Notes under the pieces: generated by a model
Seen by the model: the letters and a program-made list of their open reading frames with translations, nothing else
Databases searched by the model: none
Told to the model about the DNA's origin: nothing
Program-made: the position numbers and the translations under genes
From: Candidatus Puniceispirillum sp.
GTDB lineage: Bacteria > Pseudomonadota > Alphaproteobacteria > Caedimonadales > UBA1908
NCBI GenBank assembly: GCA_013822015.1
Contig: PNJU01000004.1
Coordinates: 28,685-92,684 of the forward strand
Direction: 5' to 3'
DNA: 64,000 bases
Part shown: piece by piece, positions 407 to 59,638 of the stretch
Layout of the letters: every line of letters starts with the position of its first letter
How positions within the stretch are numbered: position 1 is the stretch's first letter

Positions 407-1174
407 ATGGACCCAGCACTCACCCTCATTGAAGCCCTCCAAAGCTTGCCCTCAGAGGCTGTGTGTATCCTATCTTTTCTTGTCGTCAGCGCCTCCCTTT
501 TCCTCACAGCACGTTTTTTCGGCAAGAGTGGCTTGCTGATCTATAGCGTCTTAGCTCTTCTTGTTGGAAACATTCAGGTTCTAAAAGGCATTTCTGTGTC
601 CTTCTGGGACACCCCCATTGCCATGGGCACGACGATTTTTTCAGCCACCTTTGTGATCAGTGACATCCTCACCCAGGTTTACGGCAAAAAGGATGCCTTT
701 CGCGCTGTGCTTCTAGGTTTCTGGTCAACCTTTCTCGTGGCAATCCTCATGACCCTGGCCCTGGGTGTGCGCCCACTTGGCGTGCCAGTAACCCATCCTG
801 ATTTTCATTTTGACGCAGCCCATGAGGCCATGATGGTGCTTTTTGCGCCCGCACCACGCCTGCTTCTGGCCAGCCTCACCGCCTATCTTGTTTCCCAGGC
901 ACTCGACATCACCCTCTTTGATTGGCTCAAGCGCACAACGCCCCTGCCCCTTGTGTTGCGCGCGGCTGTCACAACGGCGCTGGCCTTCTTTGTGGATAAC
1001 ACAGTCTTTAGTCTTCTTGCATGGCGCCTTTTCTCACCCACACCCGTTCCCTGGGATAGTCTTTTTTATTCATATATAATGGGAACTTATTTTGTACGCG
1101 TGGGCGTGAGCATTCTCTTTCTCCCTCTCATTGCCAGCGTTTGTAAAACCCTCTCCAAAAGGCGTCTGCCATGA
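407..1174 (+). CDS. yhhQ: Queuosine-precursor transporter, YhhQ/VUT (DUF165) family membrane protein
   Basis: 255-aa polytopic hydrophobic ORF with a YhhQ-like core (FVISDILTQVYGKKDAFRAV). Its stop overlaps the tgt start (ATGA). Confidence 0.75.
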   Translation: MDPALTLIEALQSLPSEAVCILSFLVVSASLFLTARFFGKSGLLIYSVLALLVGNIQVLKGISVSFWDTPIAMGTTIFSATFVISDILTQVYGKKDAFRAVLLGFWSTFLVAILMTLALGVRPLGVPVTHPDFHFDAAHEAMMVLFAPAPRLLLASLTAYLVSQALDITLFDWLKRTTPLPLVLRAAVTTALAFFVDNTVFSLLAWRLFSPTPVPWDSLFYSYIMGTYFVRVGVSILFLPLIASVCKTLSKRRLP

Positions 1175-2379
1175 TCGATTACCCAAATCACCGCTTTGAT
1201 ATCACATTTCGCGATCCACATTCTCGCGCACGCCTTGGCACCCTTCACACACCCCATGGGTCTGTTCAAACGCCAGCCTTCATTTTTTGCGCCACAAAGG
1301 CGGCCATTAAAGGGCTTTCACCTGCGCAGATGCGCGCCGCCAACACCCAGATCATCCTTTCAAACACCTACCACTTGATGCTGCAGCCCGGCAGTGAGCT
1401 CGTGGCCAAAATGGGTGGTCTGCACAAATTTATGGGCTGGGATGGCCCTCTTTTGACGGACTCAGGTGGGTTTCAGATTTTTAGCTTAGGCCATGGCTCT
1501 GTGGCCAGTGAGGTGAAAGGTCGCCGTATGTCGGGCCGTGAAAAGAAGCTCTACACCATCACTGAGGAAGGTGCACAGTTTCGCTCCTATGTCGATGGAC
1601 GCCTTCACACCCTCACGCCAGAGCGCGCCATGAAAGTCCAACGTGAGCTGGGACCCGATATCGCTCTTGTCCTTGATGAGTGTACACCCTTCCATGTGGA
1701 TAAAGACTATACGAGGCGCTCCATGCATCTTTCGCACCGCTGGGCACTCAGGTCCATCGCAGCCTTTCAAGCCCATCACACGGGCGTCCAGGCCCTTTAT
1801 GGCATTATCCAGGGAGGGGTGTATCCGGATCTAAGAAAGGAGTCCGCCTCATTTGTGGGTGGGCAGCCCTTCTTCGGCCATGCGGTTGGCGGATCCTTGG
1901 GCGCTGACAAAGAGCAAATGTACGACGTTGTGGCCATGACCATGGAACAGCTTCCCCAAGATAAACCAGTTCATTTGCTTGGCATCGGCGGCATTCGGGA
2001 CATTTTCAACGGCGTGCGTGAAGGCATTGATACCTTTGACTGCGTCCACCCCACACGCCTTGCAAGGCACGGCGGCGCCCTGGTGACCACAGCTGTGCCT
2101 CCCCGTGACGCGCAGGATACACGCGAGCACATCAATCTCAATAATGCGGCCTATAGAGACGATCCGTCGCCCATTGATCCGTCTTGCCGGTGTGATACGT
2201 GTACAACCGTTTCACGGGCGTACATTCACCACCTCCTGAAGGCCAAGGAAATTCAAGCACACCAGCTCATCACCTTCCACAATGTGTTTCACATGAACAG
2301 GCTTTTAGAGGCTGTGCGCGCGGCGATCGCAACCGGCACCTTGAAGGAAGAAGAAAAGAACTGGATTCGGGGGAGCTAG
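1171..2379 (+). CDS. tgt: tRNA-guanine transglycosylase (queuine tRNA-ribosyltransferase)
   Basis: 402 aa. Has the LTDSGGFQIFSL catalytic-Asp motif, LLGIGG, and the zinc site CRCDTC...H. The pocket motif is atypical (see findings). Confidence 0.9.
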   Translation: MIDYPNHRFDITFRDPHSRARLGTLHTPHGSVQTPAFIFCATKAAIKGLSPAQMRAANTQIILSNTYHLMLQPGSELVAKMGGLHKFMGWDGPLLTDSGGFQIFSLGHGSVASEVKGRRMSGREKKLYTITEEGAQFRSYVDGRLHTLTPERAMKVQRELGPDIALVLDECTPFHVDKDYTRRSMHLSHRWALRSIAAFQAHHTGVQALYGIIQGGVYPDLRKESASFVGGQPFFGHAVGGSLGADKEQMYDVVAMTMEQLPQDKPVHLLGIGGIRDIFNGVREGIDTFDCVHPTRLARHGGALVTTAVPPRDAQDTREHINLNNAAYRDDPSPIDPSCRCDTCTTVSRAYIHHLLKAKEIQAHQLITFHNVFHMNRLLEAVRAAIATGTLKEEEKNWIRGS

Positions 2380-2446: not shown

Positions 2447-3433
2447 TTAGCTCTTTGCACCAACGATGGTTCCGTGTTGTAGGAGCCCTTTTGACAGCAC
2501 AATACCTAACTTTGCTGCCGCTGTGGGATTCAAAACAAGACGCGTTTTCTCAGGGTGCTCGACCTTAAGAGCGTGGGCTTTTGCGCCGGTCAGAATTTTG
2601 GCCACAAGGGCGCCAACTTGTGCACCCTGGTCCCTGTAGTCGTACCCGCGCATACCTACAAGCCCTTTTTCTACAAGCATAATGTCGGCAGCGTATATGG
2701 GAAGCTTGTGTTTTTGACAGACCTTGATGGCGGCCTCAAGACCCGATGCGACGGTATTATCATTGGCGACGTAGATAGCATCGACCTTGCCAACCAAGGA
2801 TGTTGCCCCCTGCCCCACTTCAGTCACTTTACTCACAGCTTGTGTGATGACCTTCAAACCTAAGCCGGTGGCTGCTTTCTCGACAAGTGACACAGCTGTG
2901 ACAGAGTTCGCTTCACCGGGGTTAAACAGCATCCCAATGGTTTTGACGCTAGGCTGAACCTCTTGGATAAAGGCCAACTGATCCGGAAAATCGGGTAAAT
3001 CACTCACGCCGGTCACCTCCATGGCGGTGTTGTTCTCTTTTTCAGATGGCAAAATTTTTGCGGCCACTGGGTCTGTGATTGCGCCAAACACGATGGGGAT
3101 CTTGCCTCCTGCCGCCTTCACGACTGTTTGTGCGGATGGAGTGGAAATGGCCACGATGGCGTCAGGATTTTCACTTGCAAATTTTTTGGCGATTTGTGCG
3201 GCTGTTGTCAAATTACCTTGAGCAGACTCCTGTTTGACCGTCAAAACGGACTCTCCAAATCCGTTACTGCGCAGATAATCAATGGCACCAGCGGCAACGG
3301 CGTCAAGGGCCGGGTGGTCGACGATCTGTGTCACCAGCAAGATTTTTTTGGGTGAGGCGTGGGCGCTCCCCGCTATGCCAAGAAGCACGCTTACGCCTAT
3401 GAGTGTTTTTCTTATTGTTTTCATCTCTGACAA
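2447..3433 (-). CDS. ABC transporter substrate-binding protein (ABC_sub_bind / BMP-like family), periplasmic
   Basis: 328 aa with a signal peptide. Family-typical blocks are VDHPALDA, ISTPSAQ, IPIVFGAITDPV and TGVSD. No permease or ATPase gene is adjacent. Confidence 0.8.
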   Translation of the reverse strand: MSEMKTIRKTLIGVSVLLGIAGSAHASPKKILLVTQIVDHPALDAVAAGAIDYLRSNGFGESVLTVKQESAQGNLTTAAQIAKKFASENPDAIVAISTPSAQTVVKAAGGKIPIVFGAITDPVAAKILPSEKENNTAMEVTGVSDLPDFPDQLAFIQEVQPSVKTIGMLFNPGEANSVTAVSLVEKAATGLGLKVITQAVSKVTEVGQGATSLVGKVDAIYVANDNTVASGLEAAIKVCQKHKLPIYAADIMLVEKGLVGMRGYDYRDQGAQVGALVAKILTGAKAHALKVEHPEKTRLVLNPTAAAKLGIVLSKGLLQHGTIVGAKS

Positions 3434-3457: not shown

Positions 3458-4321
3458 CTAAAATTTCCCAATTGGCAAACCAGAGAGATGGCTTGCAAGT
3501 TTATCTAAATCCATCATGGACTTAAAGCTTATGCGGATTTCACCTCCCTGCCCTTTTGCTTCAATGCGAGTGGCAAGTCCCAAGTGCTGGGTCAAAATAT
3601 CCTCAAGGGATGCAAGATCTGGATCAACTCCTGAAGAGCTCTTTGTCTTAGGCTTCTTCTCTTTTGCTGCTGCTTCCGTTTGGCGCACATTGAGTTTTTG
3701 GCTGATAATTTGCTCTGCCAAAGCCTCAGGGTCGCTTGATGTTAAGAGGGCTCTTGCGTGTCCAGCACTGAGCTGACCCGATTCTAGATAATGGCGAATC
3801 TTCTCAGGAAGAGCTAAAAGACGCACTGTGTTGGCCACATGGCTTCTACTTTTTCCGACATTTTGAGAGACTTCTTCTTGTGTATAGGAGAAGTCATCCA
3901 TGAGTCTTTTATAGCCTTCCCCTTCTTCAATAGGGTTGAGATCTGCGCGCTGAACATTTTCGGTAATAGCTACCTCTAAGGTTTGGCGGTCATCAAGCTC
4001 CTTTACAAGAACAGGCACTTGTGTGAGTCCAGCTTTTTTGGCGGCCTGCCATCGGCGCTCTCCCGCAACAATCTCATAGGAAGTCACCCTGTTTTGAAGT
4101 GGTCGCACGATGAGGGGCTGAAGGATGCCTTGCTTCTCAATGGACCTTGCAAGATCATCAAGATGGTTTGGATCAAAGTGTTGTCTGGGCTGATAGGGAC
4201 CTGGCGCCACATCATTGATACTGATAAAGCGCACGTCACCTGGTGTCTCCACTTTGCCTGCGAGCGTATCGACGCTTAAAAGAGCAGAAAGGCCGCGACC
4301 GAGGGAAGTGTGTGTGCTCAT
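3458..4321 (-). CDS. parB: Chromosome partitioning protein ParB
   Basis: 287 aa with the GERRWQAAKKAGL box and an HTH region. Overlaps the parA stop by 4 nt. Confidence 0.93.
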   Translation of the reverse strand: MSTHTSLGRGLSALLSVDTLAGKVETPGDVRFISINDVAPGPYQPRQHFDPNHLDDLARSIEKQGILQPLIVRPLQNRVTSYEIVAGERRWQAAKKAGLTQVPVLVKELDDRQTLEVAITENVQRADLNPIEEGEGYKRLMDDFSYTQEEVSQNVGKSRSHVANTVRLLALPEKIRHYLESGQLSAGHARALLTSSDPEALAEQIISQKLNVRQTEAAAKEKKPKTKSSSGVDPDLASLEDILTQHLGLATRIEAKGQGGEIRISFKSMMDLDKLASHLSGLPIGKF

Positions 4322-5088
4322 GCGTGTACTCCGTGTTTTGTCAGTAGCTCACCTGCAAGCTTCATGTAAGCCATGGATCCGGGGCTTTTGACGTCGTAAA
4401 TCAGAACTGGGTGACCAAAGGATGGCGCCTCAGAAACCTTCGTATTTCGGGGGATAATACTATCAAAGACATATCCTCCAAAGTGTTTTTTTGCGTCTTG
4501 AGCCACTTGATCAGAAAGGGAGCTTCTTTTGTCGTACATAGTCATGACAATGCCCTCAAGCTTCAGATCTGGATTCAGATAGCTTTGAGCGTAGTGAATG
4601 GTTTTGATGAGGCGGCTCAGTCCGTCAAGGGCGTAAAACTCGCACTGCAAGGGGATGAGAACACTGCCAGAGGCAGAAAGGGCATTCAAGGTCAGCAGAC
4701 CCAGTGTGGGTGGACAATCAATGATGATATAATCGTAGTCGTTTTGACATCCAGAAAAAGCTTTTTTGAGAAAAAATTCGCGCTCAGATTGCTCAACCAG
4801 TTCGATCTCAGCGCCGGCCAAATCTGGTGATGCAAGAAGGAGGTCAAGATGCGTGATGCGGGTCTTGATGGCAACTTCCGACACTTTTGTCAGCCCACAA
4901 AGAACCTCGTAGCTCCCTTTTCTGTCTTGTTTTTCAAAAACACCGACACCTGTGCTGGCGTTTCCTTGTGGATCAAGGTCAACAAGAAGCACACGCCGAC
5001 CAACGGCAGCAAGCGCCGTAGAAAGATTAACGGCCGTCGTGGTTTTCCCCACACCGCCCTTCTGGTTTGCTATGGATATGATCTTCAT
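4318..5088 (-). CDS. parA: Chromosome partitioning ATPase ParA
   Basis: 256 aa with the deviant Walker A motif KGGVGKTTTAVNL. Confidence 0.93.
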   Translation of the reverse strand: MKIISIANQKGGVGKTTTAVNLSTALAAVGRRVLLVDLDPQGNASTGVGVFEKQDRKGSYEVLCGLTKVSEVAIKTRITHLDLLLASPDLAGAEIELVEQSEREFFLKKAFSGCQNDYDYIIIDCPPTLGLLTLNALSASGSVLIPLQCEFYALDGLSRLIKTIHYAQSYLNPDLKLEGIVMTMYDKRSSLSDQVAQDAKKHFGGYVFDSIIPRNTKVSEAPSFGHPVLIYDVKSPGSMAYMKLAGELLTKHGVHA

Positions 5089-5677
5089 GGATCTTAGGCC
5101 TCACATGTTTCAGGATCAAAATTGTTCCATCTGATGAAGTTATACTCTCTTTTTGCTCCAGATCAAAGGACCACTTTTGCCTCGCTTCATTTATTTCTTC
5201 GGCCGCGCCACGCCCCTTTAGAAAGATACAGCGCCCTTCCTTTTTAAGTAGCGGTTGAGCAAAAGATAAGAGCTGATCTAGGGAGGCAAGGGCACGGGAC
5301 GTGACAACATCGACGTTGTTGAGGGCAGATTCTTCGATGCGCCCTTCATACACATCAAAGGAGAGAGAAAGCTGTCGTCTTACCTCTCTTAAGAAAGAGC
5401 ATTTTTTGTGATTGGACTCCATGAGGGAAAGATTCTCAAGCCCAAGAATGGAGAGCACAACACCGGGAAAGCCACCGCCACTCCCCATGTCCGCAACAAC
5501 TGATTCCGTTTCAATGAGTGGGAGAAGTTGAGCGCTGTCAATGATGTGCCGGCCCCAAATGTCTGCGATTGTTTCACGTGAAACAAGATTGTGGGTTTTT
5601 TGCCACTTCAAGAGGAGCACCTCAAACGACCTGAGGCGCTCCATTGTTTCACGTGAAACACTGAAGGGAAAGTCCAT
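5027..5677 (-). CDS. rsmG: 16S rRNA (guanine527-N7)-methyltransferase RsmG (GidB)
   Basis: 216 aa with two VSRET motifs and the SAM motif DMGSGGGFPG. The 3-prime end overlaps parA by 62 nt. Confidence 0.9.
   Translation of the reverse strand: MDFPFSVSRETMERLRSFEVLLLKWQKTHNLVSRETIADIWGRHIIDSAQLLPLIETESVVADMGSGGGFPGVVLSILGLENLSLMESNHKKCSFLREVRRQLSLSFDVYEGRIEESALNNVDVVTSRALASLDQLLSFAQPLLKKEGRCIFLKGRGAAEEINEARQKWSFDLEQKESITSSDGTILILKHVRPKIHEDHIHSKPEGRCGENHDGR
5570..5585. other. parS centromere-like site (perfect 16-bp palindrome TGTTTCACGTGAAACA)
   Basis: Exact palindrome read in the sequence. It lies inside rsmG, encodes VSRET, and is adjacent to parAB. Confidence 0.85.
5645..5660. other. parS centromere-like site (second perfect TGTTTCACGTGAAACA)
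   Basis: Identical 16-mer, 75 bp from the first, also inside rsmG. Confidence 0.85.
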
Positions 5678-5682
5678 GTAAA

Positions 5683-6939
5683 TTATGAGTTCATGGATTG
5701 GAAGAAATCATCATTTGACTTTGTGTTGCGGAGCTTCTCAAGAATGAAGTCCATGCCATCATGGGCACCCATGGGTGCCACGATGCGGCGCAAGACCCAC
5801 ATCTTGGAAAGCCTTCCCTTATCCACAAGAAGGTCTTCCTTACGGGTTCCAGATCTTGTGATATCAATGGCCGGGAAGATACGCTTATCGGAGAGTTTGC
5901 GATCAAGAACAATTTCACAGTTACCCGTTCCCTTGAACTCTTCAAAGATTACCTCGTCCATACGAGATCCCGTTTCTACAAGAGCTGTCGCGATGATGGT
6001 CAGTGAGCCGCCGTCCTCAATGTTACGGGCCGCTCCAAAGAAGCGCTTTGGCTTTTGAAGGGCATTTGCATCCACACCACCGGTCAAAACCTTTCCTGAT
6101 GAAGGGACAACGGTGTTGTAAGCACGCGCAAGCCTTGTGATGTTATCCAAAAGGATCACAACATCGCGTCCGTGCTCAACGAGGCGTTTCGCTTTTTCGA
6201 TAACCATTTCAGCCACTTGCACGTGTCGCGTTGCTGGCTCGTCGAAGGTGGAGCTGACAACCTCACCCTTGACGCACCTGGCCATGTCCGTCACTTCTTC
6301 GGGACGCTCGTCGATCAAGAGAACGATGAGGTAAACCTCAGGATGGTTCTTTTCGATAGAGTGCGCAATTTGTTGCAGCATGATCGTCTTACCAGAACGG
6401 GGAGGTGCGGTTATGAGAGCACGCTGACCTTTACCCAGAGGGCTGATGAGCTCAATGACGCGTTGAGTTAGGTGCTCGTTTCCTGGATCTTCAATTTCAA
6501 GCTTAAGTTTTTCCTCTGGGTACAAGGGGATAAGGTTGTCAAAGTTGATACGATGACGTGCTTTTCCGGGATCTTCGAAGTTGATGGTGTTGAGCTTCAA
6601 AAGAGCGAAGTAACGTTCACCTTCTTTGGGGGAGCGGATTTGCCCCGCAACCGTATCTCCCGTGCGAAGGCCAAAACGTCGCACCTGAGAGGGTGAGATG
6701 TAAATATCGTCAGGGCCGGGCAGGTAACTCGCGTGCTGTGAGCGCAAAAAGGCGAAGCCATCCTGGAGAATTTCAACGGTCCCCTCACCAAAGATTGGCA
6801 TATCTTTTTCTGCAAGTTTTTTCAGGATGCTAAAAACAAGATCTTGTTTTTTAAGGGTACTTGCGTTTTCAACTTCATGTTCTTCAGCAAGAGCAAGAAG
6901 CTCAGCAGGGGCCTTGGCCTTGAGTTCGTTGATATTCAT
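5683..6939 (-). CDS. rho: Transcription termination factor Rho
   Basis: 418 aa with an N-terminal RNA-binding domain, P-loop PPRSGKT, and the conserved C-terminus. Confidence 0.97.
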
Positions 6940-7011: not shown

Positions 7012-7470
7012 CTAGAATGGCTTTAAGACAACCAAAAAGACGATAAAAACCATCAAAAGGGCAACTACTTCATTTATAATACGAAAAAACCGTGAAGAGC
7101 GCGGTCGTTCGTCACGTGCAAAAGCGCGCATATTCGACACAAAAAAACCATGGAGGCCGCTAAGCCCCAGGACAAAGAGCATCTTTGTATGGAACCATAT
7201 GTTGGGCTTGGAAATCGTTCCCGGCACACACATCAAAAGGACACCAAACACAAAAACGGTTAACATGGCTGGCGTCATGATAAAGCGCACGAGACGATGC
7301 TCCATCACTTTAAGGTGCTGGGAAAACTCTCCTCCCACGGGGGCATCTGCGTGATAAACAAACAAACGAGGCAGATAGAGAATCGCCGCCATCCAGGAGA
7401 TGACAGCAACAATGTGAAGCGCTTTAAGGGGGAGGTAAAACTGCATGAGGAAAATTTGAAGCTGCTCCAC
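7012..7470 (-). CDS. hemJ: Protoporphyrinogen IX oxidase HemJ (UPF0093/CopD-like membrane protein)
   Basis: 152-aa 4-TM protein with KALHIVAVISWMAAILYLPRLFVYH. It directly follows hemE. The start is either GTG 7470 or ATG 7446. Confidence 0.8.
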   Translation of the reverse strand: MEQLQIFLMQFYLPLKALHIVAVISWMAAILYLPRLFVYHADAPVGGEFSQHLKVMEHRLVRFIMTPAMLTVFVFGVLLMCVPGTISKPNIWFHTKMLFVLGLSGLHGFFVSNMRAFARDERPRSSRFFRIINEVVALLMVFIVFLVVLKPF

Positions 7471-8517
7471 TTAGGCTACCTTTCTCGCTGCTGTGTCTTT
7501 CACCATCCCTAAAAAGGCATGGACATTGTCGATGGGGGTTGTGGGTAAAATCCCATGGGAAAGATTCATGATGAGGGGTTTGCCTTCAAAAGCTGTCATG
7601 GTTTGTTCAACGGCGGATCTTAAAAGATCCCCACCAGCCCTCAAAAGCTCCGGGTGAGGTCCTGTTTGGATGGGAAGATCCTTTGGTAAAGTCGTTGCAA
7701 GGGTATGGGGCAACTCAAGCTGATCGCAGGCCAAAGCGTCACAGGGAACACTTTCTTTGAATGAGCTAAGTTGATGCGCCGACAATCCCTTTGGAAAAAT
7801 GATAAGCGGGATGGAGGGATAAGCCTCATTCACGCGACGTGCCACTGCGCGAAGGGGCGCGAAAATCAGATCCTCTTGAAGTGGGGCAGGGACGCTGCCG
7901 GCCCAACTATCAAATATTTTCAAGACGTTTACGCCAGCCTTGGCCTGAGCAAGAAGATAGGCACTTGTTGCGTCTACCACACGTTCCTGAAGCCGTTTGA
8001 AGAGGGTAGGGTTCTCGAAATACAGCGAGAGAGTTTGTCCGTGGGCTTTACCCTTGGAGCCCTGCCCCTCGATCATATAGGTCATAACCGTCCAGGGAGC
8101 GCCGGCAAAGCCAATGAGCGCCTTTTCTGGGGGTAGGGTGGCCCTTACCGCACGAATCGCCTCCAGGATGGGTTCAATGATCTTCTCATCGATAGCCGTC
8201 GCTAAGGTTTCAAAATCTCGCAAAGACCCGATGGGTGGCAAAACTGGTCCTACACCGGACTCAAAATGCACTTTTTGACCCAGCGCGTGGGGCACCATCA
8301 GAATATCTGAGAAAATAATGGCCGCGTCTAAATCAAAACGCTTGAGCGGCTGAAGGGTTACTTCTGTTACCAAATCTGCGTGCCGGCAAAAGTCCATAAA
8401 TTGAGGGGCTTTTTTTCGTAGTTCTTTGAATTCAGGCAGATAGCGACCGGCTTGACGCATAATCCAAACGGGAGGTGTTTTTGAGATTTTCCCCCTTAAG
8501 GTGTCGACGAGTTTCAT
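7471..8517 (-). CDS. hemE: Uroporphyrinogen decarboxylase
   Basis: 348 aa with the PVWIMRQAGRYLPEF signature. Confidence 0.95.
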   Translation of the reverse strand: MKLVDTLRGKISKTPPVWIMRQAGRYLPEFKELRKKAPQFMDFCRHADLVTEVTLQPLKRFDLDAAIIFSDILMVPHALGQKVHFESGVGPVLPPIGSLRDFETLATAIDEKIIEPILEAIRAVRATLPPEKALIGFAGAPWTVMTYMIEGQGSKGKAHGQTLSLYFENPTLFKRLQERVVDATSAYLLAQAKAGVNVLKIFDSWAGSVPAPLQEDLIFAPLRAVARRVNEAYPSIPLIIFPKGLSAHQLSSFKESVPCDALACDQLELPHTLATTLPKDLPIQTGPHPELLRAGGDLLRSAVEQTMTAFEGKPLIMNLSHGILPTTPIDNVHAFLGMVKDTAARKVA

Positions 8518-8693
8518 CCATCAAATCCTTAATAATTTATTTATAAGTTATATGTGGTTTTTGGTGGTGTGGAAAGCTTTTTGCACAAAGAGTTCGCGGG
8601 AAAGTTTTCCACGACGTTCATTTGATGTGTATGCTATTGATTTTATTGAGAAAAATATGGACAGAGTCTAACTTATTCGCATTTCAAGATGAC

Positions 8694-8702
8694 TTATCCA
8701 CA
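8694..8702 (+). promoter_or_regulatory. DnaA box TTATCCACA (perfect)
   Basis: Exact 9-mer in the intergenic region. Confidence 0.6.
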
Positions 8703-8703
8703 G

Positions 8704-8718
8704 TTAATCCTTTGTTAA
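8704..8718. promoter_or_regulatory. CtrA-type box TTAA-N7-TTAA
   Basis: TTAATCCTTTGTTAA begins 2 bp after the first DnaA box. Confidence 0.4.
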
Positions 8719-8802
8719 TAAACTGTGAGCGGGGGTGGACGAAGAGAGGAGAAAATTTATTAAGATTAAAAAAGGGATAAGTCCTGCACAGGCGTACAGG
8801 AC

Positions 8803-8811
8803 TTATCCACA
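8803..8811 (+). promoter_or_regulatory. DnaA box TTATCCACA (perfect), embedded in a 12-bp inverted repeat
   Basis: Exact 9-mer. The right arm of GGATAAGTCCTG (8775-8786) / CAGGACTTATCC (8797-8808) overlaps it. Confidence 0.6.
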
Positions 8812-8840
8812 GAATTTTACAAGAAGGGAAGCGGATCTGG

Positions 8841-9242
8841 TTAGTGGGAGAGGGGCCTGAGCGTAAAGAAAAAACGACGGGATTGATGCTCGAAGAGGTA
8901 ATGGGGAACACTTTCGTGTGTGACGCGCACCAATGTGGGCTGGGCAAGCATTTTTGATGTCTTCACGGGTGTAAGTCGTTTCGCGTAGAGGTGAGCCGGC
9001 TTACCGTTAACATGTATCACCATGGAGAGGGACTGGACGCGTTCCATCTGCGCCTTGAGAAGCTCCACGAGGGGGGCTTCTTGAGACAGCTGGGGAACAC
9101 CATCAGAAAGCGGGACAGTGATACGCACGCGCGCTTGAAAGGGTTCGCTTTCTTGGTCGTCTGATGCGGTTGCATTTGGGCAAGTCACAAGAAGGCTCAG
9201 AAAGAAAGACAGACACAGGTGTAATGAGGGCATGGGGGACAA
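8841..9242 (-). CDS. Hypothetical small exported protein (weak call)
   Basis: 133-aa ORF with an N-terminal signal-like segment LCLSFFLSLLVTCPNATA. No recognisable family. It may not be coding. Confidence 0.3.
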   Translation of the reverse strand: MSPMPSLHLCLSFFLSLLVTCPNATASDDQESEPFQARVRITVPLSDGVPQLSQEAPLVELLKAQMERVQSLSMVIHVNGKPAHLYAKRLTPVKTSKMLAQPTLVRVTHESVPHYLFEHQSRRFFFTLRPLSH

Positions 9243-13753: not shown

Positions 13754-14278
13754 TCAGTCTCCTTTGCTTGTCAGAACAAAGGCGCTGTGGACCTCAAGAT
13801 ACCCTTTATCCACAGCAACCATTGGCACGGCGTCTTTGTGAAAAGGCACCATGACCTCCTCAAGGGAGCCGTTGGCCGCAAGCACCAAAATGTCCCCCGC
13901 CCCAAAGTTCTCAACACGCACGACGCGAAGAGACTGCCCTGTTTCCAAAATACGTGCTTCTAACCCCTCAAGGGTATGGTAGTAGTACCCATCATCTTCC
14001 CCGAGATCTGGAAGTAAGTCTTTGGAACCATACAGCACTTTTGTTTGATGAAGCTTGCCGGCCTCAGGTGTGTCGATCCCAGAAAGCTTCACGATGAGGC
14101 GATCTTTTGATGCCCCACGCACAGCTTCTAAGGTATAGGACGCGCCCCTTTCGTCTTCTAAAAGAACCCCCTTTTTTAAGAAGGAAGGGTCTTCCAGAAG
14201 ACAAAAAGCTTTCAGCTCCCCACGGATACCATGGGGAGCTGAAAGTTTCAAAACACGGATTAACGCTTTGGACGACAA
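13754..14278 (-). CDS. rimM: 16S rRNA processing protein RimM
   Basis: 174 aa with the HGIRGELK motif. Sits in the canonical rpsP-rimM-trmD-rplS order. Confidence 0.88.
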
Positions 14279-16044: not shown

Positions 16045-16221
16045 ATTTTTCCATAACAAAAAGCACCGGTGGGCGACACTCGCTGACCGGTGAATTAATC
16101 ACAGCACTCTAGGCGGGTCCCGCGCTAAATGTCAAGACGTTTGTGCTTTTGTCTTAAAAAGACTGGGGAATTTCGTAAAAACACGTTATGATGGGGGCCA
16201 AATGGCCCAGGGAGATTCTTC

Positions 16222-29848: not shown

Positions 29849-29940
29849 GGGTTTGTTAACAGTTTATTAAGGATTATGTGATCCACTTCTGCGCCCCGGT
29901 ATCCGGGGTTTGCTTGTTTGAGAGTCACCTAGGGCGATTT

Positions 29941-37422: not shown

Positions 37423-37784
37423 AACAACTCCCCATGCCCTTGAGAGGCATACTTAAATCAAGGAGTTATGAGAGGCCTTTCTTTTTCTCTGTTTGCCGCG
37501 CAGGAGGCGCAACATCACCCATGCAGGCGCGCAATGAAGCACGCGCTCGGCGTGAAAGCCAAGTCCAGGGTGAATCGCACCATGTTACGTCCAGTTTAAA
37601 AGACATCACAACTCTTACCAAAACACGCACACGAAGGGCTAAAAAACGCCTAAGTGCTTGTGGTTAAACTTCTACTTCTCCAGGGTACACAGATATGGCG
37701 CGAGAGACAATCCCTTTTAATAATTTCTTAAGACACTGGAAAGGAATTGACGGGTTCTTTTTTGTGAATTAATATGCGCGCCCT

Positions 37785-38831
37785 TTAAGCGATATCGCTG
37801 TTGAAAATGTGAAGACTGACCTGGTCATCATCATGGGTAAAGGGGTGCACCTTGAGCCATGAGGTCCACCCAAGGGTTGTCTTGGCCCCTATTTTTGTTT
37901 TTTCCACGTCGCTGGCGCGCATGACAAGGCGGATATCAAAGCTGTGCTCGGTCCCAAGATAAAAGCGGATCAGCTCACACAGGGCCGTGAAGGCTCCTCC
38001 ACCGTCGGGCAGAAATGCCCGAAAACGTTTGTCATCCAAAGGACCCAGCTGCACACTGATGCGACTACGTGTGTCCCAGAACTTATCCCCGATGGAGGCG
38101 TCTTCTCCCAGGGTTTGAAAACGTCCCGCGCGCCCAATGCAGGTTTGCTCTTCCTCGGGTATGCTAAGCCACTGTCCACAAAAGGGCGTGACACTCACGG
38201 GGACATTAAAATAGTGGGAGAGGAAAATCTCAAGACCAGATGTTGAGCGCGGAGATTTCCACAAAAGGCCCGCGTAGTACAAAAGACCGCGATCGGGCAC
38301 GCTCATGCGATCTCTAAAAGCGTCCCCCCCAATACCCAAAAATGAAAAAAGAATCTGGGCAAAGGCCGTTTTATCAGGGGGGTCCGTTGCAAGACCTACC
38401 CAGTATTTTTTACGGATACGGTGAAATATGGATAAAAGGCGATGGTTGAAGATGTCGAGAAAGTCGCGAAAAGCTGTGTCGCCTGAGCGTGCGCGCTCCA
38501 TGAGAAGCTCAGAAAAAGGCATGGGCAGGGGGCCGTTCGGGCCCGCAAGTCCTAAAAAGTTGATACTCATCTGACAGGGGTATTGGCGGTCCTTGCTTAA
38601 AGGAGGTGTGAGGGAAAAAAGGTCGCTGGGAGGATAGGAGTGGGACACGCGTGCGCTGATGGATAAGGCCTCATTCTCGGGAACAGCATCTCGCCCAAGC
38701 TCTGTCGCCTTAGGAAAGGCAAGCTCGACCAGCTTCACCGCCTGGTGAAATTCAAAATAATAACTGGTCGCAAACAGCTCCTCAATTACACAAGGACGCG
38801 GTTTCCGGCTGTGGGCTTCCATGTTTTCCAC
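37785..38831 (-). CDS. tssG: Type VI secretion system baseplate subunit TssG (ImpH/VasB)
   Basis: 348 aa with a TssG-like N-terminus (FEFHQAVKLVE...VPENEALSISARVSHSYPPSD). Overlaps the tssF 3-prime end, as in canonical clusters. Confidence 0.85.
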   Translation of the reverse strand: MENMEAHSRKPRPCVIEELFATSYYFEFHQAVKLVELAFPKATELGRDAVPENEALSISARVSHSYPPSDLFSLTPPLSKDRQYPCQMSINFLGLAGPNGPLPMPFSELLMERARSGDTAFRDFLDIFNHRLLSIFHRIRKKYWVGLATDPPDKTAFAQILFSFLGIGGDAFRDRMSVPDRGLLYYAGLLWKSPRSTSGLEIFLSHYFNVPVSVTPFCGQWLSIPEEEQTCIGRAGRFQTLGEDASIGDKFWDTRSRISVQLGPLDDKRFRAFLPDGGGAFTALCELIRFYLGTEHSFDIRLVMRASDVEKTKIGAKTTLGWTSWLKVHPFTHDDDQVSLHIFNSDIA

Positions 38832-40639
38832 GTTCCTTTATAACGGTTATTAAGCACTTCCAACTGGGTAAAGGTATTTACCGAGGCAAAAAGGGAGAAG
38901 AAATGATTCAAAACAGAAGCAAAAACAAAAGCACCTATGTCGTGATAATCTTCCTCACCAAAGGTCAGGGTAATCTTAGTGCCTTGGGCAAATCCGCGCC
39001 ATGCGTCCACCCCAAAGCGTCGTGTGACAAGTGTGGTCGACATATCTGTAATGGCATCAAGCTCAGGAATTGTGCGCTCACGCTCAATGTTTGCATAAAG
39101 GCGAATGACCTCCTTAAGGGCGCGCAGGGCCCCCTCTCCCCCTGAAAGGGCAAGATGGTTTAGGCTGAGTTGCGAAATGAGGCGCCACTGGGTCTGACCG
39201 TCCCTGGGGGGATAAATTTGCTTTGTGGGGCGATCGAGGACAAAGATCCGTGTGACGGGAATTTTATCCTCTGCGTGCAGCTGTCCGCCCGACGGAATTT
39301 GCTCAGCGAGATTTCTGTTGGTGCACAGGCTCTTGGCAAAAATTGTGTGGGTCACGGGTTTGAGGGGCGTAAAATCAAAATCCACAAAGGACAGGTGCAT
39401 GTCTGTCCCTGTCATGCCCTGACGGTCTGTTTCCGTGCGCCGGGCGTGCCAGAAAGATTTGTGCCCTTTTTCCGATAGCTGGTGGTTATAGCTAAAGTAA
39501 GGCATGAATTTCTCGACCTCTTTTTCTTGATCAATGGCTGCACTGACCTCAAGAATAGAGTGAATTTCTGTGGTTTTTTCGGCCTTAAGATCGGGGATCA
39601 AACGGTATTCAACACTGCGATGATCCAGGCGAATGGGCTCAGTGATCTTATGGAAAAGATTAATGATGGGGGCGCAGTGAAGCAAGAAGTTCATGGCGCT
39701 GACGTCGCGGACATTTAAGGGAACTTCCTCACAAAAAGCAAAGTAAAGATCAATTTCCGACGCGTCTTGGGACAAAGATGGGTGGGCAACGTCCATGAAG
39801 AAGAACTTCTCAGGATAATGGAAGTATTCCATGAGGAGTCTATAACCTGGGTGCGCATGCTCTGGGAATGGGAGAATTGCTTCGTCTTGCTCAAAACCAA
39901 CGGGGCGTACACTTGAGGCGGGGATGTTTTGTACAAGGGGCCCAGGCGTAGGCACGGCCCCTTGAAGGACGACCTTCACGTCTTGTGCGAAAATGCCCTC
40001 ATAAAGCGCATTTTTCACCAAAGGGTTGCCCGCAATATGAAAACGCAGCTTTGTCAAACCCATGTCTTTAAAGGTGCCCGTGTGGGATTTAAGGCGAATA
40101 CGCAAGGTGCGTGAGGACCCAAGAGCCGCAGCCAAGGCGGTATCGAGGGTGCTTGTTTCCAATAGGGTGGCGTCTAGAACACTCACGGGCGCAAGTTCAA
40201 GGTCATAGCCCGTGCGAAAGGAACACACCTCACCCGTTGCTGCGCGGGAGAACACCTTTGCGTGCTTGGGCACCGTCAGGGGAGAGGTAATCTTGCCCTG
40301 ATTTTCAGGAAGCTCAAACTGTGCAATGGCAAAGGAGGGGATTGGTGCGACAAATTGTGGGTACAGGACTCCCAATAGCGCTTCCGTAAAACGCGGATAC
40401 TGATCGTCCGTATCATGCTGAAGTCTTGCTGTAAGATAGGCAAAGGACTCCAGAAGCCGCTCCACATGGGGATCGCTTGATTCAGCTGCCCCCACATCAA
40501 GACGCCTTGCGATTTTTGGGTACTCTTGGGCAAAGCGAGCGCCCGAGCGTCGCAAATAGGTGAGCTCCCGTTGGTAATAATCAAAGAAAGGGTCTAATTT
40601 TTGCACCGTTTCCTCCCTACTTTTCCAATAGTTTGCCAT
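38786..40639 (-). CDS. tssF: Type VI secretion system baseplate subunit TssF (ImpG/VasA)
   Basis: 617 aa. N-terminus is YYQRELTYLRRSGARFAQEYPKIARRL...DPHVERLLESFAYLTARLQ, colinear with TssF as I recall it. Confidence 0.9.
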   Translation of the reverse strand: MANYWKSREETVQKLDPFFDYYQRELTYLRRSGARFAQEYPKIARRLDVGAAESSDPHVERLLESFAYLTARLQHDTDDQYPRFTEALLGVLYPQFVAPIPSFAIAQFELPENQGKITSPLTVPKHAKVFSRAATGEVCSFRTGYDLELAPVSVLDATLLETSTLDTALAAALGSSRTLRIRLKSHTGTFKDMGLTKLRFHIAGNPLVKNALYEGIFAQDVKVVLQGAVPTPGPLVQNIPASSVRPVGFEQDEAILPFPEHAHPGYRLLMEYFHYPEKFFFMDVAHPSLSQDASEIDLYFAFCEEVPLNVRDVSAMNFLLHCAPIINLFHKITEPIRLDHRSVEYRLIPDLKAEKTTEIHSILEVSAAIDQEKEVEKFMPYFSYNHQLSEKGHKSFWHARRTETDRQGMTGTDMHLSFVDFDFTPLKPVTHTIFAKSLCTNRNLAEQIPSGGQLHAEDKIPVTRIFVLDRPTKQIYPPRDGQTQWRLISQLSLNHLALSGGEGALRALKEVIRLYANIERERTIPELDAITDMSTTLVTRRFGVDAWRGFAQGTKITLTFGEEDYHDIGAFVFASVLNHFFSLFASVNTFTQLEVLNNRYKGTWKTWKPTAGNRVLV

Positions 40640-40736: not shown

Positions 40737-41798
40737 TTAGAAGCTGGACCGTGAAAGAAAGTCCACGGCTGTTTGGAGGTCCCAAGTTTTGTCCTCAAGG
40801 GACTGTGTTAAAAGAGATTCGAGTCCCATACATACGCTGTGTTTAGACACTTTTTCACCAATGCGGAAAGAGGCATAAGCCTTGTCTTCCAGAAAATCTG
40901 TCACAATGCGCCTTTGGTCATCCCACAGGGCAAGATGCAGCTTTTGCGCAGGGGTGATGTGGCCAAGAATGAGGTTTTGAGCCAGAAAAAGACTTGCCTG
41001 CCTTGCTTTGTTTCTGTTGTCGCAATAAATGACGCCTAAGGAAAAGGTGAAGCCGTCTCTTCCCGCCTGAAATTCAATGCCATCCCTTGAAAAACAGTGA
41101 CTTCGTTCAAAGGATATCCCCGCGTCTTCAAGGCATTTACGTGTGTAGAGTATATTGGCTTGAGCATAGGGGCGATTTGTGAGGCCTACAATTTGGTAAC
41201 CGGCTTCACGAAGTCGCGTGAGGTGGTTTTGGATACCATCTTCCATGGTTTCGCGTGTTTCAAAAAATAAGGGGTTTTTAAAATGATCCACATGGGGGCT
41301 GCCCAATAAGCGGCTGATATTGTTTAATTCAGACGTCTCAAGGGCAGGTATTTTGAAAGTCTTTCCTTTTTGGCGTGCAAGCTCTTCAAATCTCCCATAC
41401 CCACTTTGGGAGACGGCTTTTTCCACGAGATTTCTATCCTGCAAGAATCTTGTTTTCCAAAAACGCCCCGCCCCTTCAAAAAAGAGGGTTTCATCTAAGT
41501 CGACAAAAAGCACCTTCAAGTCTGCGTCTTCGGGCGTATGCGCGAGCGTCACATTTGTTGCGTCTTCCACAGAAAATGCAACGGACACGCGCGCGGGTGA
41601 GGCGTGGGTCCCGCGATCCGTTGCAACAGCACTTAAGATGTTATCACAAATAGATTTCTTCAGTGAGGGATCGATGTAGCCCAGGATCGTTCTTTGATAA
41701 TTTCTCAAATGCAGTCGCTCTTCTTCCTCCACGCCGCTTGTGCCATAAATAGCCGTATGCCCAAAGGTCATTAGGAGAGTGATTATGAGTGCTCTCAT
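40737..41798 (-). CDS. Exported HAD-superfamily-like hydrolase (DUF2608-like), hypothetical
   Basis: 353 aa with a signal peptide, HAD motif I (FVDLDETLF), motif II-like VGLTNR, and a late WDDQ acidic motif. Lies 97 nt upstream of tssF on the same strand. Confidence 0.6.
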   Translation of the reverse strand: MRALIITLLMTFGHTAIYGTSGVEEEERLHLRNYQRTILGYIDPSLKKSICDNILSAVATDRGTHASPARVSVAFSVEDATNVTLAHTPEDADLKVLFVDLDETLFFEGAGRFWKTRFLQDRNLVEKAVSQSGYGRFEELARQKGKTFKIPALETSELNNISRLLGSPHVDHFKNPLFFETRETMEDGIQNHLTRLREAGYQIVGLTNRPYAQANILYTRKCLEDAGISFERSHCFSRDGIEFQAGRDGFTFSLGVIYCDNRNKARQASLFLAQNLILGHITPAQKLHLALWDDQRRIVTDFLEDKAYASFRIGEKVSKHSVCMGLESLLTQSLEDKTWDLQTAVDFLSRSSF

Positions 41799-41920
41799 GG
41801 GGTTAACCTCACGTTAAAAGACATCTCCCTCTACCTTAATTTGTACACAGGGACAATAGGGACGGCACAAAGGGGATTTGTTTTGACCGAAGACGTACTT
41901 CCTTAATCGTCAAAAAATAA

Positions 41921-41951
41921 TTGACTCTTAGAAAATAATAAAGCGTATAAT
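41921..41951 (+). promoter_or_regulatory. Sigma-70-like promoter for the 41977 gene
   Basis: TTGACT (41921-41926) and a perfect TATAAT (41946-41951). The 19-nt spacer is long. A GGGAGGA ribosome-binding site lies at 41966-41972. Confidence 0.35.
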
Positions 41952-41976
41952 TGCTGTGAGAACACGGGAGGAAGTC

Positions 41977-43101
41977 ATGATAAGAAACATTATACTTCAA
42001 TTGTCTATTTTGTGTGTAACAGGACCTTTGTGGGCAAGTGCCATGGGCGGAGACACTTTACCTACTGATATAGAAGAGCCCAGTGATCACGCTTTACAGC
42101 GCACAGTTGCCGACGTTTTGGCGCGCGATCCCCATGCGGATGTCAGCGACCTTATGCCGCGTGAGGTATCTTCTCAAGGAGTGTCTTCTTCCGTTCCCAT
42201 TGTCGTGACCTTTCAAACCACCGTAAGCGATGAGGAGTTCGCCAGAGAGCTTGATCGTCAACTGAATATGGAGCCGGCTCGTGACGCGCTGGACGAGAGT
42301 GACGCGACCCTTGCGCGGGCGCTTCAAGAGCTTGAGCCGCCCACAGTATTGTCTCCCCTGGTCACACCAGCGGCTGCGCATGTAAGTTCACAAGAGCCCC
42401 AGAGTGATGAGGTGCTGGCCAGGCATCTTGAGGGCACCTTAAACGGGGAACCAAGTGGTGATACACAAGAAGAGGGTGATGCGGCCCTTGCGCGCGCGCT
42501 TCAAGAACTAGAGGCGCCGCTCATGCTAGAGATGCGCTTAGAGGAGGGCGACAAAGCGCCCTACGCAGCCATGCGCCGTGATTTTTTTGCCATTCAACAC
42601 GGTCAGGACGTCCATGCCATGACGCGGGCTTTTGCAAAGGCCCATTACGGATTCCTTAAAAGCATTGAAGAGAAGTATTTTGGTTACACAAAGGATTTGG
42701 ACGCGCTACGCATCGCACATGGGCGTGATCTGTTTCTTGAGGACTGTAAAACAGATGCAAAAGCTGAGCATTTGAGTTCCGATGCCTTTAAAACAAAAAC
42801 CGCTCTCATGATGGGGCTCCTTGAGGGGAAAAAGGGTTTGTGGATGCCAGGGGCGCAGGACGTGGACGGGGAAACGGGTCTGTCTCTTCGTGAAGTCTTC
42901 GCCCGGGTTTATCTTTTTGCCCTACGGCGCGATGACGCGCAAGCGGCAGCCTTCTTTGCGCGTCACGGGGAGACGCGCCCACATTTAGAGAATTTTGGAT
43001 TTTTCTGCGACAAGCTCGCTGAAAACGTGAGCGAAGGTGGCGGATGCCACGCGGGCATCACCGGGCGTTTGGTGTACACTTTTGCCTACTTTTTAACATA
43101 G
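41977..43101 (+). CDS. Hypothetical exported protein with a tandem 59-aa repeat carrying MIU/UIM-like helices
   Basis: 374 aa from the ATG at 41977, with a signal/TM segment ILQLSILCVTGPLWASA. There are two 177-bp repeats. No family is recognised for the C-terminal domain. Confidence 0.65.
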   Translation: MIRNIILQLSILCVTGPLWASAMGGDTLPTDIEEPSDHALQRTVADVLARDPHADVSDLMPREVSSQGVSSSVPIVVTFQTTVSDEEFARELDRQLNMEPARDALDESDATLARALQELEPPTVLSPLVTPAAAHVSSQEPQSDEVLARHLEGTLNGEPSGDTQEEGDAALARALQELEAPLMLEMRLEEGDKAPYAAMRRDFFAIQHGQDVHAMTRAFAKAHYGFLKSIEEKYFGYTKDLDALRIAHGRDLFLEDCKTDAKAEHLSSDAFKTKTALMMGLLEGKKGLWMPGAQDVDGETGLSLREVFARVYLFALRRDDAQAAAFFARHGETRPHLENFGFFCDKLAENVSEGGGCHAGITGRLVYTFAYFLT

Positions 43102-45328: not shown

Positions 45329-45472
45329 ATGACAGCGACGATGAAAATGTTATGGGGTATTTTGGCCCTTGCTTTGGTGGCCGCCCTGGTGATTTTGTCC
45401 ATGTGGAATATTCCAGCGCCGTCGGGTGAGGTGCGCAAGGTGATTACAGTGAAGGATTTGGGGCGCCCTTGA
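45329..45472 (+). CDS. Small single-pass membrane protein (47 aa), hypothetical
   Basis: GGGAG ribosome-binding site 11 nt upstream; hydrophobic core WGILALALVAALVILSMW; stop abuts the xerD start. Confidence 0.3.
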   Translation: MTATMKMLWGILALALVAALVILSMWNIPAPSGEVRKVITVKDLGRP

Positions 45473-45474
45473 AG

Positions 45475-46416
45475 ATGGAGGCGCTGCCCACCCTTTTGGC
45501 ACAGCTTACTCTTTTTTTAGAGATGATGGTGGCAAACAAGGGCGCGGCCGCCCATACATGTGAGAGTTACCGGCGGGACCTCATCCATTTTTTTGAGATA
45601 AGTGGCGCAAAATCCCCAGGTGATTTGGAGACAAAGAGGGTCACAGATTTTTTGGCATGCCTAGCGGAAAAGGGTTACGCTCCATCTTCCCGCGCACGCA
45701 AGATGTCGAGTTTGCGTCAATTTTGCCGGTTTTTAGTCCTTGAAGGTGTCCTAACCCAAGATCCCACACGCTTGCTTGAGGCGCCGCGGCGCGCCCGTCC
45801 CTTACCGAAGATCGTCTATGAAGCAGAGATGCAAGATCTTTTGCGCACGGCCCACGCAGGCGATGAACCTGCTGACAAGCGTCTTGCCCTTTTCTTAGAG
45901 CTCCTTTACGCCACCGGCCTGCGGGTGAGTGAGCTCATTACACTGCCCGTGCAACCCTTTGTACGCCTGAAAGAGGCGCGTGTACTCAGTGTCATTCCTG
46001 TCATGGGAAAGGGCAAGAAGGAGCGTCTCATTCCCCTTCCTCCCCAAGTATTGGACGCCGTGCGCGCGTATTTGCCCGTGCGGGGATCCTTTATCACCCA
46101 TGGGGATAGCCCATGGCTTTTTCCCTCTCCTTCGGCGGCTGGGCATATCACGCGCCAACGGGTGAATCAGCTCATTAAAGATCTGTGCGTGCGCGCAGGC
46201 CTGGATGCAACAAAGGTGTCGGCCCACGTGCTGCGCCACGCCTTTGCAACGCACCTTTTGAGCCACGGGGCTGATTTGGTCAGCGTGCAAAAACTCCTGG
46301 GGCACGCAGATTTGGGCACAACTCAAATTTATACCCATGTGATGGGCGACCACCTGCAAGAATTTATCCAGGCCCATCATCCCCTTAACAGGCAAGATAC
46401 CAAGACAGACGCATAA
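45475..46416 (+). CDS. xerD: Tyrosine recombinase XerD
   Basis: HVLRHAFATHLLSHGADLVSVQKLLGHADLGTTQIYTHV. The ATG at 45475 is preferred to the TTG at 45469. Confidence 0.85.
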   Translation: MEALPTLLAQLTLFLEMMVANKGAAAHTCESYRRDLIHFFEISGAKSPGDLETKRVTDFLACLAEKGYAPSSRARKMSSLRQFCRFLVLEGVLTQDPTRLLEAPRRARPLPKIVYEAEMQDLLRTAHAGDEPADKRLALFLELLYATGLRVSELITLPVQPFVRLKEARVLSVIPVMGKGKKERLIPLPPQVLDAVRAYLPVRGSFITHGDSPWLFPSPSAAGHITRQRVNQLIKDLCVRAGLDATKVSAHVLRHAFATHLLSHGADLVSVQKLLGHADLGTTQIYTHVMGDHLQEFIQAHHPLNRQDTKTDA

Positions 46417-55019: not shown

Positions 55020-55195
55020 GGGGATCTCCAGTTGTGTGTGGATCATGAAAAGCATAGGGACAAAACCTTAATAAAAACTTAAATGCGTGGTGAGAGGGTC
55101 CGGATTATATGGGCTAGGCGTAGTTTTCTTGCGCTTGGCGCCCAGGTGTGGTTAAAGAAAGAAGACCTTCCTTCTTTTTTCAGTTTGATACGCCC

Positions 55196-59618: not shown

Positions 59619-59638
59619 ATAAGTCTTGAGGGTGCGTC

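Follow-up and report, generated by a model that had tools for sequence, protein, structure and literature searches.

The 323-bp non-coding gap at positions 8518–8840 of the DNA stretch analysed here is, judging from its sequence, very probably the chromosomal origin of replication (oriC) of an uncultured alphaproteobacterium, and of the type known from Caulobacter as 'Cori'. The stretch, hereafter called the window, comprises 64,000 nt of contig PNJU01000004.1 (assembly GCA_013822015.1, positions 28,685–92,684 of the forward strand) from Candidatus Puniceispirillum sp., and its genes were called from open reading frame (ORF) maps together with Pfam searches. The gap extends from the start codon of hemE (8517, minus strand) to the stop codon of a small ORF (8841). 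A first-pass annotation of the same DNA had proposed an origin between hemE and the pdh operon, and this proposal is supported by a cluster of DnaA boxes, an AT tract, sequence conservation and gene context. We make the call because the gene order hemE-hemJ-rho-rsmG-parA-parB, with parS, matches that of known origins, and because the gap persists in relatives while its far-side neighbour varies.

Two perfect DnaA boxes, TTATCCACA, lie in the same orientation on the plus strand of the gap: box 1 at 8694–8702, ~185 bp upstream of the hemE ATG, and box 2 at 8803–8811, which lies 109 bp beyond box 1, ~294 bp from hemE. They are accompanied by four degenerate boxes. Two of these are on the minus strand, at 8553–8561 (three mismatches) and 8568–8576 (two mismatches), and two are on the plus strand with two mismatches each: TTTTCCACG at 8605–8613, of which GTGGAA is partly kept in alignment A1, and TTATTCGCA at 8673–8681, which is kept in close relatives only. 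All six had been placed at these coordinates in the first-pass annotation. The window contains six copies of the perfect box where 0.34 would be expected in 64 kb, a count reached in 0 of 100 shuffles; all six fall within the first 14 kb, two of them in the gap. From this expectation we derive a chance of ~1e-6 for two perfect boxes in 323 bp. A better box cluster elsewhere had been named as a finding that would undermine the proposal; within the 64 kb the gap scored highest, with 13 versus 8 for the runner-up among clusters of 323 bp, and no other among the 13 intergenic regions of 150 bp or longer holds two boxes at one mismatch or fewer. The remaining four perfect boxes are intragenic, at 991–999 (minus strand), 1695–1703 (minus strand), 5819–5827 and 13806–13814; three of these had been listed before, and the one at 991–999 had been overlooked. 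The idea that intragenic boxes form part of an extended origin was rejected for the two that the relatives' contigs cover, those in rho and rimM, which are incidental codon accidents: they spell the codons for V-D-K (GTG GAT AAg), and relatives do not preserve them.

Further support comes from comparison with metagenomic relatives. HemE sequences from a protein database at 96, 87, 71, 57–58 and 52–54% identity gave 12 contigs at five divergence levels, identified below by L numbers where they need to be told apart. In all of them a gap of 270–430 bp precedes hemE, and hemE is in turn followed by hemJ (in L090 after an intervening ferrochelatase gene) and then by rho where the contig reaches that far. 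The gene on the far side of the gap varies, being a small ORF plus pdh in the 71% and closer relatives, ferritin plus fliL at 57%, and a beta-lactamase gene at 54%. Perfect or one-mismatch boxes are found in all of the gaps, the exceptions being L091 and L092 of the 54% lineage, which have a single one-mismatch box and no perfect one. In L084, of the 71% clade, there are two boxes with the same 109-bp spacing, and in the 57% and 52% clades there are four or five. Across ~59 kb of sequence from the relatives, 13 of 13 perfect boxes lie inside the hemE gap. We see that box 1 is invariant in L081, L083 and L084, has one mismatch in L085 (the proximal box of that contig), and aligns with box-like sequences in the deeper clades. 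In four clades, from the 96% down to the 57% relatives, the distal box is perfect and lies at −294 to −312 relative to the hemE ATG, and in L090 a perfect box stands at −261; the sequence CTGTGGATAAGT at box 2 is invariant in alignment A1.

This conservation exceeds what is seen at sites expected to drift. Window and L084 agree at 63% of gap positions (201/319), compared to 40–46% identity at four-fold degenerate sites of hemE, hemJ, rho and pdhC, and 57% for pdhB. Blocks that are 80–90% invariant are found at both boxes, at TTTATTAACA, and over ~60 bp next to hemE. These alignments show purifying selection on the boxes and on the spacing between them. Two modules can be recognised down to 52% HemE identity: a hemE-proximal one, CTTTCCACA...CAAAAAC..TATAA, and a central one, CACAG.TT.T.AC...TGTG.ATAA. 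Profiles of both modules, run with nhmmer, gave no match at the ~160 other alphaproteobacterial hemE loci tested; of roughly 175 hemE loci searched, the hemE-proximal profile hit those of the clade and no others. Their confinement to the clade fits the published pattern, in which origin sequences are alike only among close relatives and the architecture is more widely common (PMC1914354). Among the background loci, hemE-upstream box clusters were found in Rickettsia, Midichloriaceae, Jidaibacter, Micavibrio and Kordiimonadaceae, and not in Rhodobacterales.

A second type of site accompanies the boxes. A perfect CtrA-type motif, TTAATCCTTTGTTAA (TTAA-N7-TTAA), lies at 8704–8718, a single base beyond box 1, and a copy with one mismatch, TTAATAATTTATTTA, lies at 8529–8543 inside the A/T tract described below; both are as first reported. 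Shuffling gives P ~0.026 for one perfect motif in the gap. In the window as a whole, five of five perfect motifs are intergenic, in a fraction that makes up 9% of the sequence, against 0.12–0.22 expected (P < 1/2000), so the motif appears to be in use in the host. The other four are found at 29856–29870 upstream of dnaG, at 37717–37731 upstream of rne, at 41803–41817 between divergent unknown genes near tssF/tssG, and at 55068–55082 between adh and uvrA. This intergenic set suggests a CtrA-type regulon. Upstream of dnaG the 15-mer is TTAACAGTTTATTAA, the very sequence found at the origin site of L084.

The CtrA-type site beside box 1 recurs between −201 and −214 relative to the hemE ATG in the 96%, 87%, 71% and 57% clades, in perfect or one-mismatch form and with one TTAA half-site common to all. 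It stands at −201 in the window; in L084 and L085 the perfect site is shifted by one half-site, to −214, and shares its central TTAA with the window; and in the 57% clade a one-mismatch TTAT-N7-TTAA occupies the same place, at −207, overlapping a box-like sequence. Half-sites thus turn over among the relatives, yet a full site is maintained. Neither ctrA nor ccrM was detected by Pfam in the 64-kb window. However, a related metagenome-assembled genome (L173; GCA_013911655.1, JACESU010000001.1) encodes a response regulator scoring 375.9 bits against NCBI's CtrA equivalog model NF045991 (cut-off 350). Its gene lies at 3729–4493, 4.4 kb beyond rpmB, in a contig that shares the rpmB-Vut_1-tgt block with the window (tgt 76% identical), and because the window starts at rpmB, ctrA may sit just off its left edge. 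GANTC, the target of CcrM, is depleted in the window (132 versus 214 ± 12.6 expected, z ~ −6.5), which is in keeping with the genome encoding a methyltransferase of the CcrM/HinfI type. The single GANTC of the gap is present as reported (GAGTC at 8664–8668) and is lost even in the 96% and 87% relatives, so we rejected it as a conserved CcrM element and give it no weight.

The gap is also rich in A and T, with a GC content of 0.37 versus ~0.53 for the window. Its A/T tract at 8529–8553 (24 of 25 positions, as previously counted) is the joint AT-richest stretch of 25–40 bp in the window, equalled once at 51.3 kb. The tract contains the one-mismatch CtrA-like site, is overlapped at its right end by a likely hemE −10 element (GTTATA, 8547–8552), and keeps TTAATAAnnTnTTTA in the 71% clade; it is the candidate unwinding site. 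It overlaps the clade-conserved hemE-proximal module at 8547–8589 (minus strand), which in hemE orientation reads TGCAAAAAGC TTTCCACA CCACC AAAACCACA TATAAC and is near-invariant down to 52% HemE identity. The module holds the two tandem sites at 8568–8576 and 8553–8561, which probably act as weak DnaA boxes, and it would also form a promoter, with a −35 element TTTCCA (8570–8575), a 17-nt spacer and a −10 element TATAAC (8547–8552). A sigma-70 scan did not call this promoter, because the −10 element ends in C.

The neighbouring genes are those expected beside an origin. Leftwards from the gap, all on the minus strand, are hemE (7471–8517; URO-D/HemE, E = 6e-89), the UPF0093/HemJ-type gene hemJ (7012–7470), rho (5683–6939), rsmG/gidB (5027–5677), parA (4318–5088), parB (3458–4321) and a gene for an ABC substrate-binding protein (2447–3433), with rpmB, the Vut_1 transporter gene and tgt on the plus strand at the left end of the window. 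The rsmG and parA ORFs, as called, overlap by ~60 nt. In Alphaproteobacteria mnmE and mnmG are usually found between rho and rsmG; both are absent from that position here and in the relatives L090 and L091, where rsmG follows rho directly. Two perfect parS sites, TGTTTCACGTGAAACA, lie at 5570–5585 and 5645–5660, inside rsmG and upstream of parA. These are origin-proximal partition sites, 3 kb from the gap, so the earlier statement on parAB and parS is borne out by Pfam and by exact matches. A parS site is usually found within ~10 kb of the origin (PMC4468827).

On the right, the first-pass annotation had given pdh as the neighbour. The pdh genes are indeed there, but a conserved ORF of 133 codons (8841–9242, minus strand), whose product has an N-terminus resembling a signal peptide and matches no Pfam family, stands between the gap and pdhC. 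Its product is 34% identical to a 129-residue counterpart in L084, and this homology means that the gap truly ends at 8840. The ORF is fast-evolving and is found in the 71% clade too, always between pdhC and the origin. Beyond it follow pdhC, pdhB, pdhA, rplS, trmD, rimM, rpsP and ffh, all on the minus strand and ending at 16059.

To place these features in a common frame we used the criteria of Ioannidis et al. 2007 for hemE-linked alphaproteobacterial oriC regions (PMC1914354). Six of the seven are seen in the gap, namely those for boundary gene, size, DnaA sites, site density, AT content and conservation. The boundary gene (hemE or COG1806) is hemE, the other neighbour being the small ORF and then pdh, not COG1806/DUF299. 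The length of 323 bp falls in the intergenic range of 200–1000 bp. DnaA boxes (TTATNCACA) are represented by the two perfect copies plus four or five sites at two to three mismatches. For site density, assessed within the window, the gap stands alone among intergenic regions of 150 bp and above in having two boxes with no more than one mismatch, and it has a CtrA-type site as well. The IHF consensus (WATCAN5WTR) gives one loose match, AATCAATAGCATA at 8630–8642 (minus strand), which is weak and not kept in the 71% clade (L084, L085). For skew, the minimum is at 4.1 kb and the best change-point at 2.4 kb, with a short left arm. The arrangement that marks a CtrA-regulated, Cori-type origin, TTAA-N7-TTAA abutting a DnaA box, is found at 8704–8718.

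The skew data deserve closer description. Cumulative GC skew has its minimum at 4.1 kb, within a flat stretch at 1.5–6.5 kb, and climbs with little interruption between 16 and 64 kb; the sign passes from minus to plus, which is the polarity of an origin and not of a terminus. GC skew at third codon positions (GC3 skew) was calculated per gene to part replication from coding-strand effects. The three plus-strand genes at the left end give −0.17 to −0.31, whereas plus-strand genes to the right average about −0.01. Minus-strand genes at 2.4–8.5 kb have a mean of +0.11, an intermediate value that is nearer the ~ +0.15 of those on the right. In short, skew places the switch in the first ~10 kb of the window, which is compatible with the gap but does not single it out. 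Shifts in skew are known to spread over sizeable regions in these bacteria (PMC1914354). We also looked for an extension of the left arm through tgt homologues: L175 adds 0.6 kb, and in L173, on a contig of 976 kb, synteny breaks right after tgt. The junction between tgt and the substrate-binding-protein gene (2380–2446) is a rearrangement point, with obg-rpmA-rplU following tgt in L173 and a 672-codon gene for a tetratricopeptide repeat protein inserted at the same junction in L175; the best GC3 change-point falls here too.

Several observations weigh against placing the origin in the gap, and skew provides a number of them. The best GC3 change-point, at 2.4 kb (sum of squared errors 69.2), lies ~6 kb from the gap, which gives 79.0 compared to 83.8 for no switch. 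Only 2.4–8.5 kb of sequence lies to the left, and with so short an arm the switch rests on three plus-strand genes; the contigs of L175 and L084 are too short and noisy to replicate it. All genes for 7.5 kb to the right of the gap (rpsP-rimM-trmD-rplS, ffh and pdh) would be head-on to a rightward fork. The first-pass annotation had flagged this orientation correctly, and it is not damaging. It is common to L084 at 71% identity, where the pdh and rplS operons are head-on as well, but is not shared by the wider clade. As dnaA was not found by Pfam in the 64-kb window, a better cluster may exist elsewhere. The gap has two strong boxes only, and box 2 could also be, quite simply, a stretch of a terminator stem (see below). 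The strict IHF consensus, WATCAANNNNTTR, has no match in the gap, and no convincing IHF site was found there. Finally, a scan for DnaA-trios found no run of three or more within 16 bp of the tandem weak boxes. Runs of (NTN)3 occur only beside box 1, without the CTA consensus, and are not kept in L088.

The alternative that fares best is an ordinary regulatory region, in which a DnaA-controlled hemE promoter stands next to the upstream operon's terminator and the origin proper is elsewhere, for example beside dnaA outside the window. We consider this unlikely, although it accounts for several features. The most conserved block does read as a promoter, suitably spaced from the hemE ATG; the skew change-point has its centre elsewhere; and many Alphaproteobacteria (e.g. 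the Rhodobacterales loci) lack a box cluster upstream of hemE, so that the linkage is not universal. Box 2, moreover, lies within a strong terminator-like hairpin at 8768–8808 (minus strand), which has a 15-pair stem and a 4-nt loop, is followed by CTTTTTT, and overlaps box 2 with its 5' arm. An inverted repeat of 12 bp containing box 2 had been described at 8775–8786/8797–8808; the repeat is real, but its extent was understated, those 12 bp being the core of the longer stem. The hairpin folds at −27.1 kcal/mol (z = −6.9) and has the shape of an intrinsic terminator, presumably for the small-ORF/pdh transcript. An Rfam search of the gap returned no known RNA family, only a sub-threshold match on the hairpin (E = 0.4).

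The same hairpin supplies an argument in favour of an origin. It is present in the 96% and 87% relatives and absent in L084 (z = −0.37), where box 2 is nonetheless invariant. This indicates that the box is the older, selected element, and that the terminator was built around it. Both boxes and their 109-bp spacing are thus kept where no hairpin exists, and at 185 and 294 bp upstream of the ATG the consensus boxes lie far beyond a promoter. Mere regulation of hemE would also leave unexplained the four or five boxes in the same gap of deeper relatives, the lack of perfect boxes anywhere else on the relatives' contigs, and the coincidence at this locus of parS, parAB, the AT tract and an origin-type skew polarity. 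An embedded promoter is itself known in Caulobacter Cori (PMC6393856).

A locus of the datA or DARS type, which would titrate or recycle DnaA near the origin without being the origin, is a markedly weaker candidate, and we judge it very unlikely. It would suit a small cluster of few high-affinity boxes with a possible IHF site, and the skew minimum a few kb to the left. The datA and DARS loci of E. coli have a similar box count to the gap. On the other hand, no other intergenic region at 1–16 kb is long enough or box-rich enough to be an origin, and we know of no report of a datA- or DARS-type locus next to hemE in Alphaproteobacteria. With hemE as its boundary, an AT tract and an embedded promoter, the gap has the architecture of origins known in this class (PMC1914354). 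As for chance clustering of motifs in an AT-rich spacer, perfect boxes do also arise inside window genes through the peptide V-D-K, and one-mismatch boxes are enriched ~3-fold over the whole window, but this explanation is effectively refuted by the conservation of the boxes far past neutral divergence, and the ~1e-6 chance of two perfect boxes in 323 bp also speaks against it.

Taken as an origin, the gap can be compared to systems already described. Origins linked to hemE, with sites for DnaA, CtrA and IHF, are known from Caulobacter, Rickettsia and Wolbachia (PMC1914354, PMC6393856). Like Cori of Caulobacter crescentus (hemE/CCNA_00001), the gap lies directly upstream of hemE, which points away from it, and combines DnaA boxes, an A/T-rich tract and an embedded hemE promoter (predicted here). 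Also shared are a TTAA-N7-TTAA set against a DnaA box and parS within a few kb (PMC6393856, PMC4468827). The two differ in box strength, the gap having two perfect high-affinity TTATCCACA boxes and Cori nothing stronger than moderate G-boxes, alongside weak W-boxes. They also differ in site number: Cori has five CtrA-type sites and five GANTC, the gap one perfect CtrA-type site plus one with a single mismatch, and one non-conserved GANTC. Unlike Cori, the gap has no DUF299/COG1806 gene on its far side, and there is no sequence similarity between them.

The predicted origins of Rickettsia, Wolbachia, Ehrlichia and Anaplasma resemble the gap in having hemE as one boundary and a variable gene as the other (Brassinga 2002; Ioannidis 2007, PMC1914354); in Wolbachia, as here, the non-hemE neighbour is not COG1806/DUF299. 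These origins are intergenic regions of 300–450 bp, AT-rich relative to the genome, with about three DnaA boxes and a few CtrA-type sites, and their binding sites are more conserved than the surroundings, all of which holds for the gap. One locus in our background set, from a Rickettsia endosymbiont (L021), has six box-like sites upstream of hemE. The predicted origins of these genera have a clear IHF site, in contrast to the loose, non-conserved match in the gap, and the host here does not have the reduced, AT-rich genome of an obligate endosymbiont: the window has ~53% GC and Type VI secretion genes, and flagellar genes are found on the relatives' contigs. A likeness to the basal unwinding system (BUS) of Bacillus and Helicobacter (PMC8287927) can be seen in the tandem box-like sequences at 8568–8576 and 8553–8561, which point into the A/T tract. 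Unlike those of a BUS, they are weak (two and three mismatches), lie 5 bp apart, and have no qualifying trio run. The box-to-unwinding-site polarity expected for a BUS matches that of the tandem weak boxes. Under the published definition, a box with two mismatches or fewer within 0–16 bp of at least three trios beside an AT-rich region (PMC8287927), the gap does not belong to the BUS class; our trio scan used the strand polarity of the published model.

From these features we can outline how the origin would work. DnaA-ATP would dock on the boxes at 8694–8702 and 8803–8811, as their sequence and conservation suggest, and further protomers may then be recruited to the weaker boxes towards hemE (8673, 8605, 8568 and 8553). 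The duplex would open at the A/T tract, 8529–8553, beside the tandem weak boxes. A hemE promoter embedded in the module may take part, just as transcription of hemE helps initiation in Caulobacter. In non-replicating cells, phosphorylated CtrA on 8704–8718, and possibly on 8529–8543, would exclude DnaA or block opening, a step we propose because of the motif statistics, the positional conservation and the CtrA gene in a relative. The same logic, with CtrA hindering DnaA binding or opening, has been proposed for Caulobacter, and a promoter inside the origin is a known feature of Cori (PMC6393856; for CtrA also PMC4468827). In this sublineage the hairpin overlapping box 2 would stop head-on transcription from the small ORF and pdh before it reaches the origin. 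Newly copied origins would be segregated by ParAB acting on parS, 3 kb away.

A more speculative extension, which we offer tentatively, is that CtrA control by steric competition at a high-affinity DnaA box is ancestral in this deep lineage, and that box 2, built into a head-on terminator, could couple read-through to origin firing. The first part is suggested by the CtrA-type site, which is fixed against the same box from 100% to ~57% HemE identity. CtrA sites at origins have been viewed as a peculiarity of Caulobacter (possibly also of Rickettsia) that evolved independently (PMC4468827), and ancestral control, if true, would argue against that view.

As regards the host, the nearest named relatives are Paracaedibacteraceae, Caedibacter and Rhodospirillales, with Tgt and UvrA at 67–69% identity. 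A HemE search of species-representative genomes gave a best match of 46% identity and none closer, and a scan of JGI metagenomes with an alignment of the HemE clade found only relatives at 44% identity or less. The host is an uncharacterised, uncultured alphaproteobacterial lineage. Elsewhere in the window, the Type VI secretion genes tssG and tssF are found at 37785–40639, with adjoining ORFs at 40737–43101 that have no Pfam match. A gene for a XerC/XerD-type tyrosine recombinase lies at 45469–46416. A block of ORFs without Pfam hits (439, 521, 112, 95 and 367 codons) at 58098–63401 reaches a GC skew of 0.21 and may be acquired DNA; three one-mismatch DnaA boxes fall within it, at 59331–59568. 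The Rfam 'ffh sRNA' (small RNA) motif was matched at 16058–16092 (minus strand), directly upstream of ffh, with 35.1 bits against a gathering threshold of 35.

The current understanding of origins is unchanged by this locus, which would join the known class of hemE-linked alphaproteobacterial origins. If the call is right, it anchors the origin, and hence the replichore layout, of a lineage without a close sequenced relative, HemE being at best 46% identical among species-representative genomes, and it gives a coordinate for coverage-based estimates of growth rate from metagenomes. With its consensus-strength boxes and abutting CtrA-type site, it would also be a data point on how far the direct action of CtrA at origins reaches outside Caulobacter.

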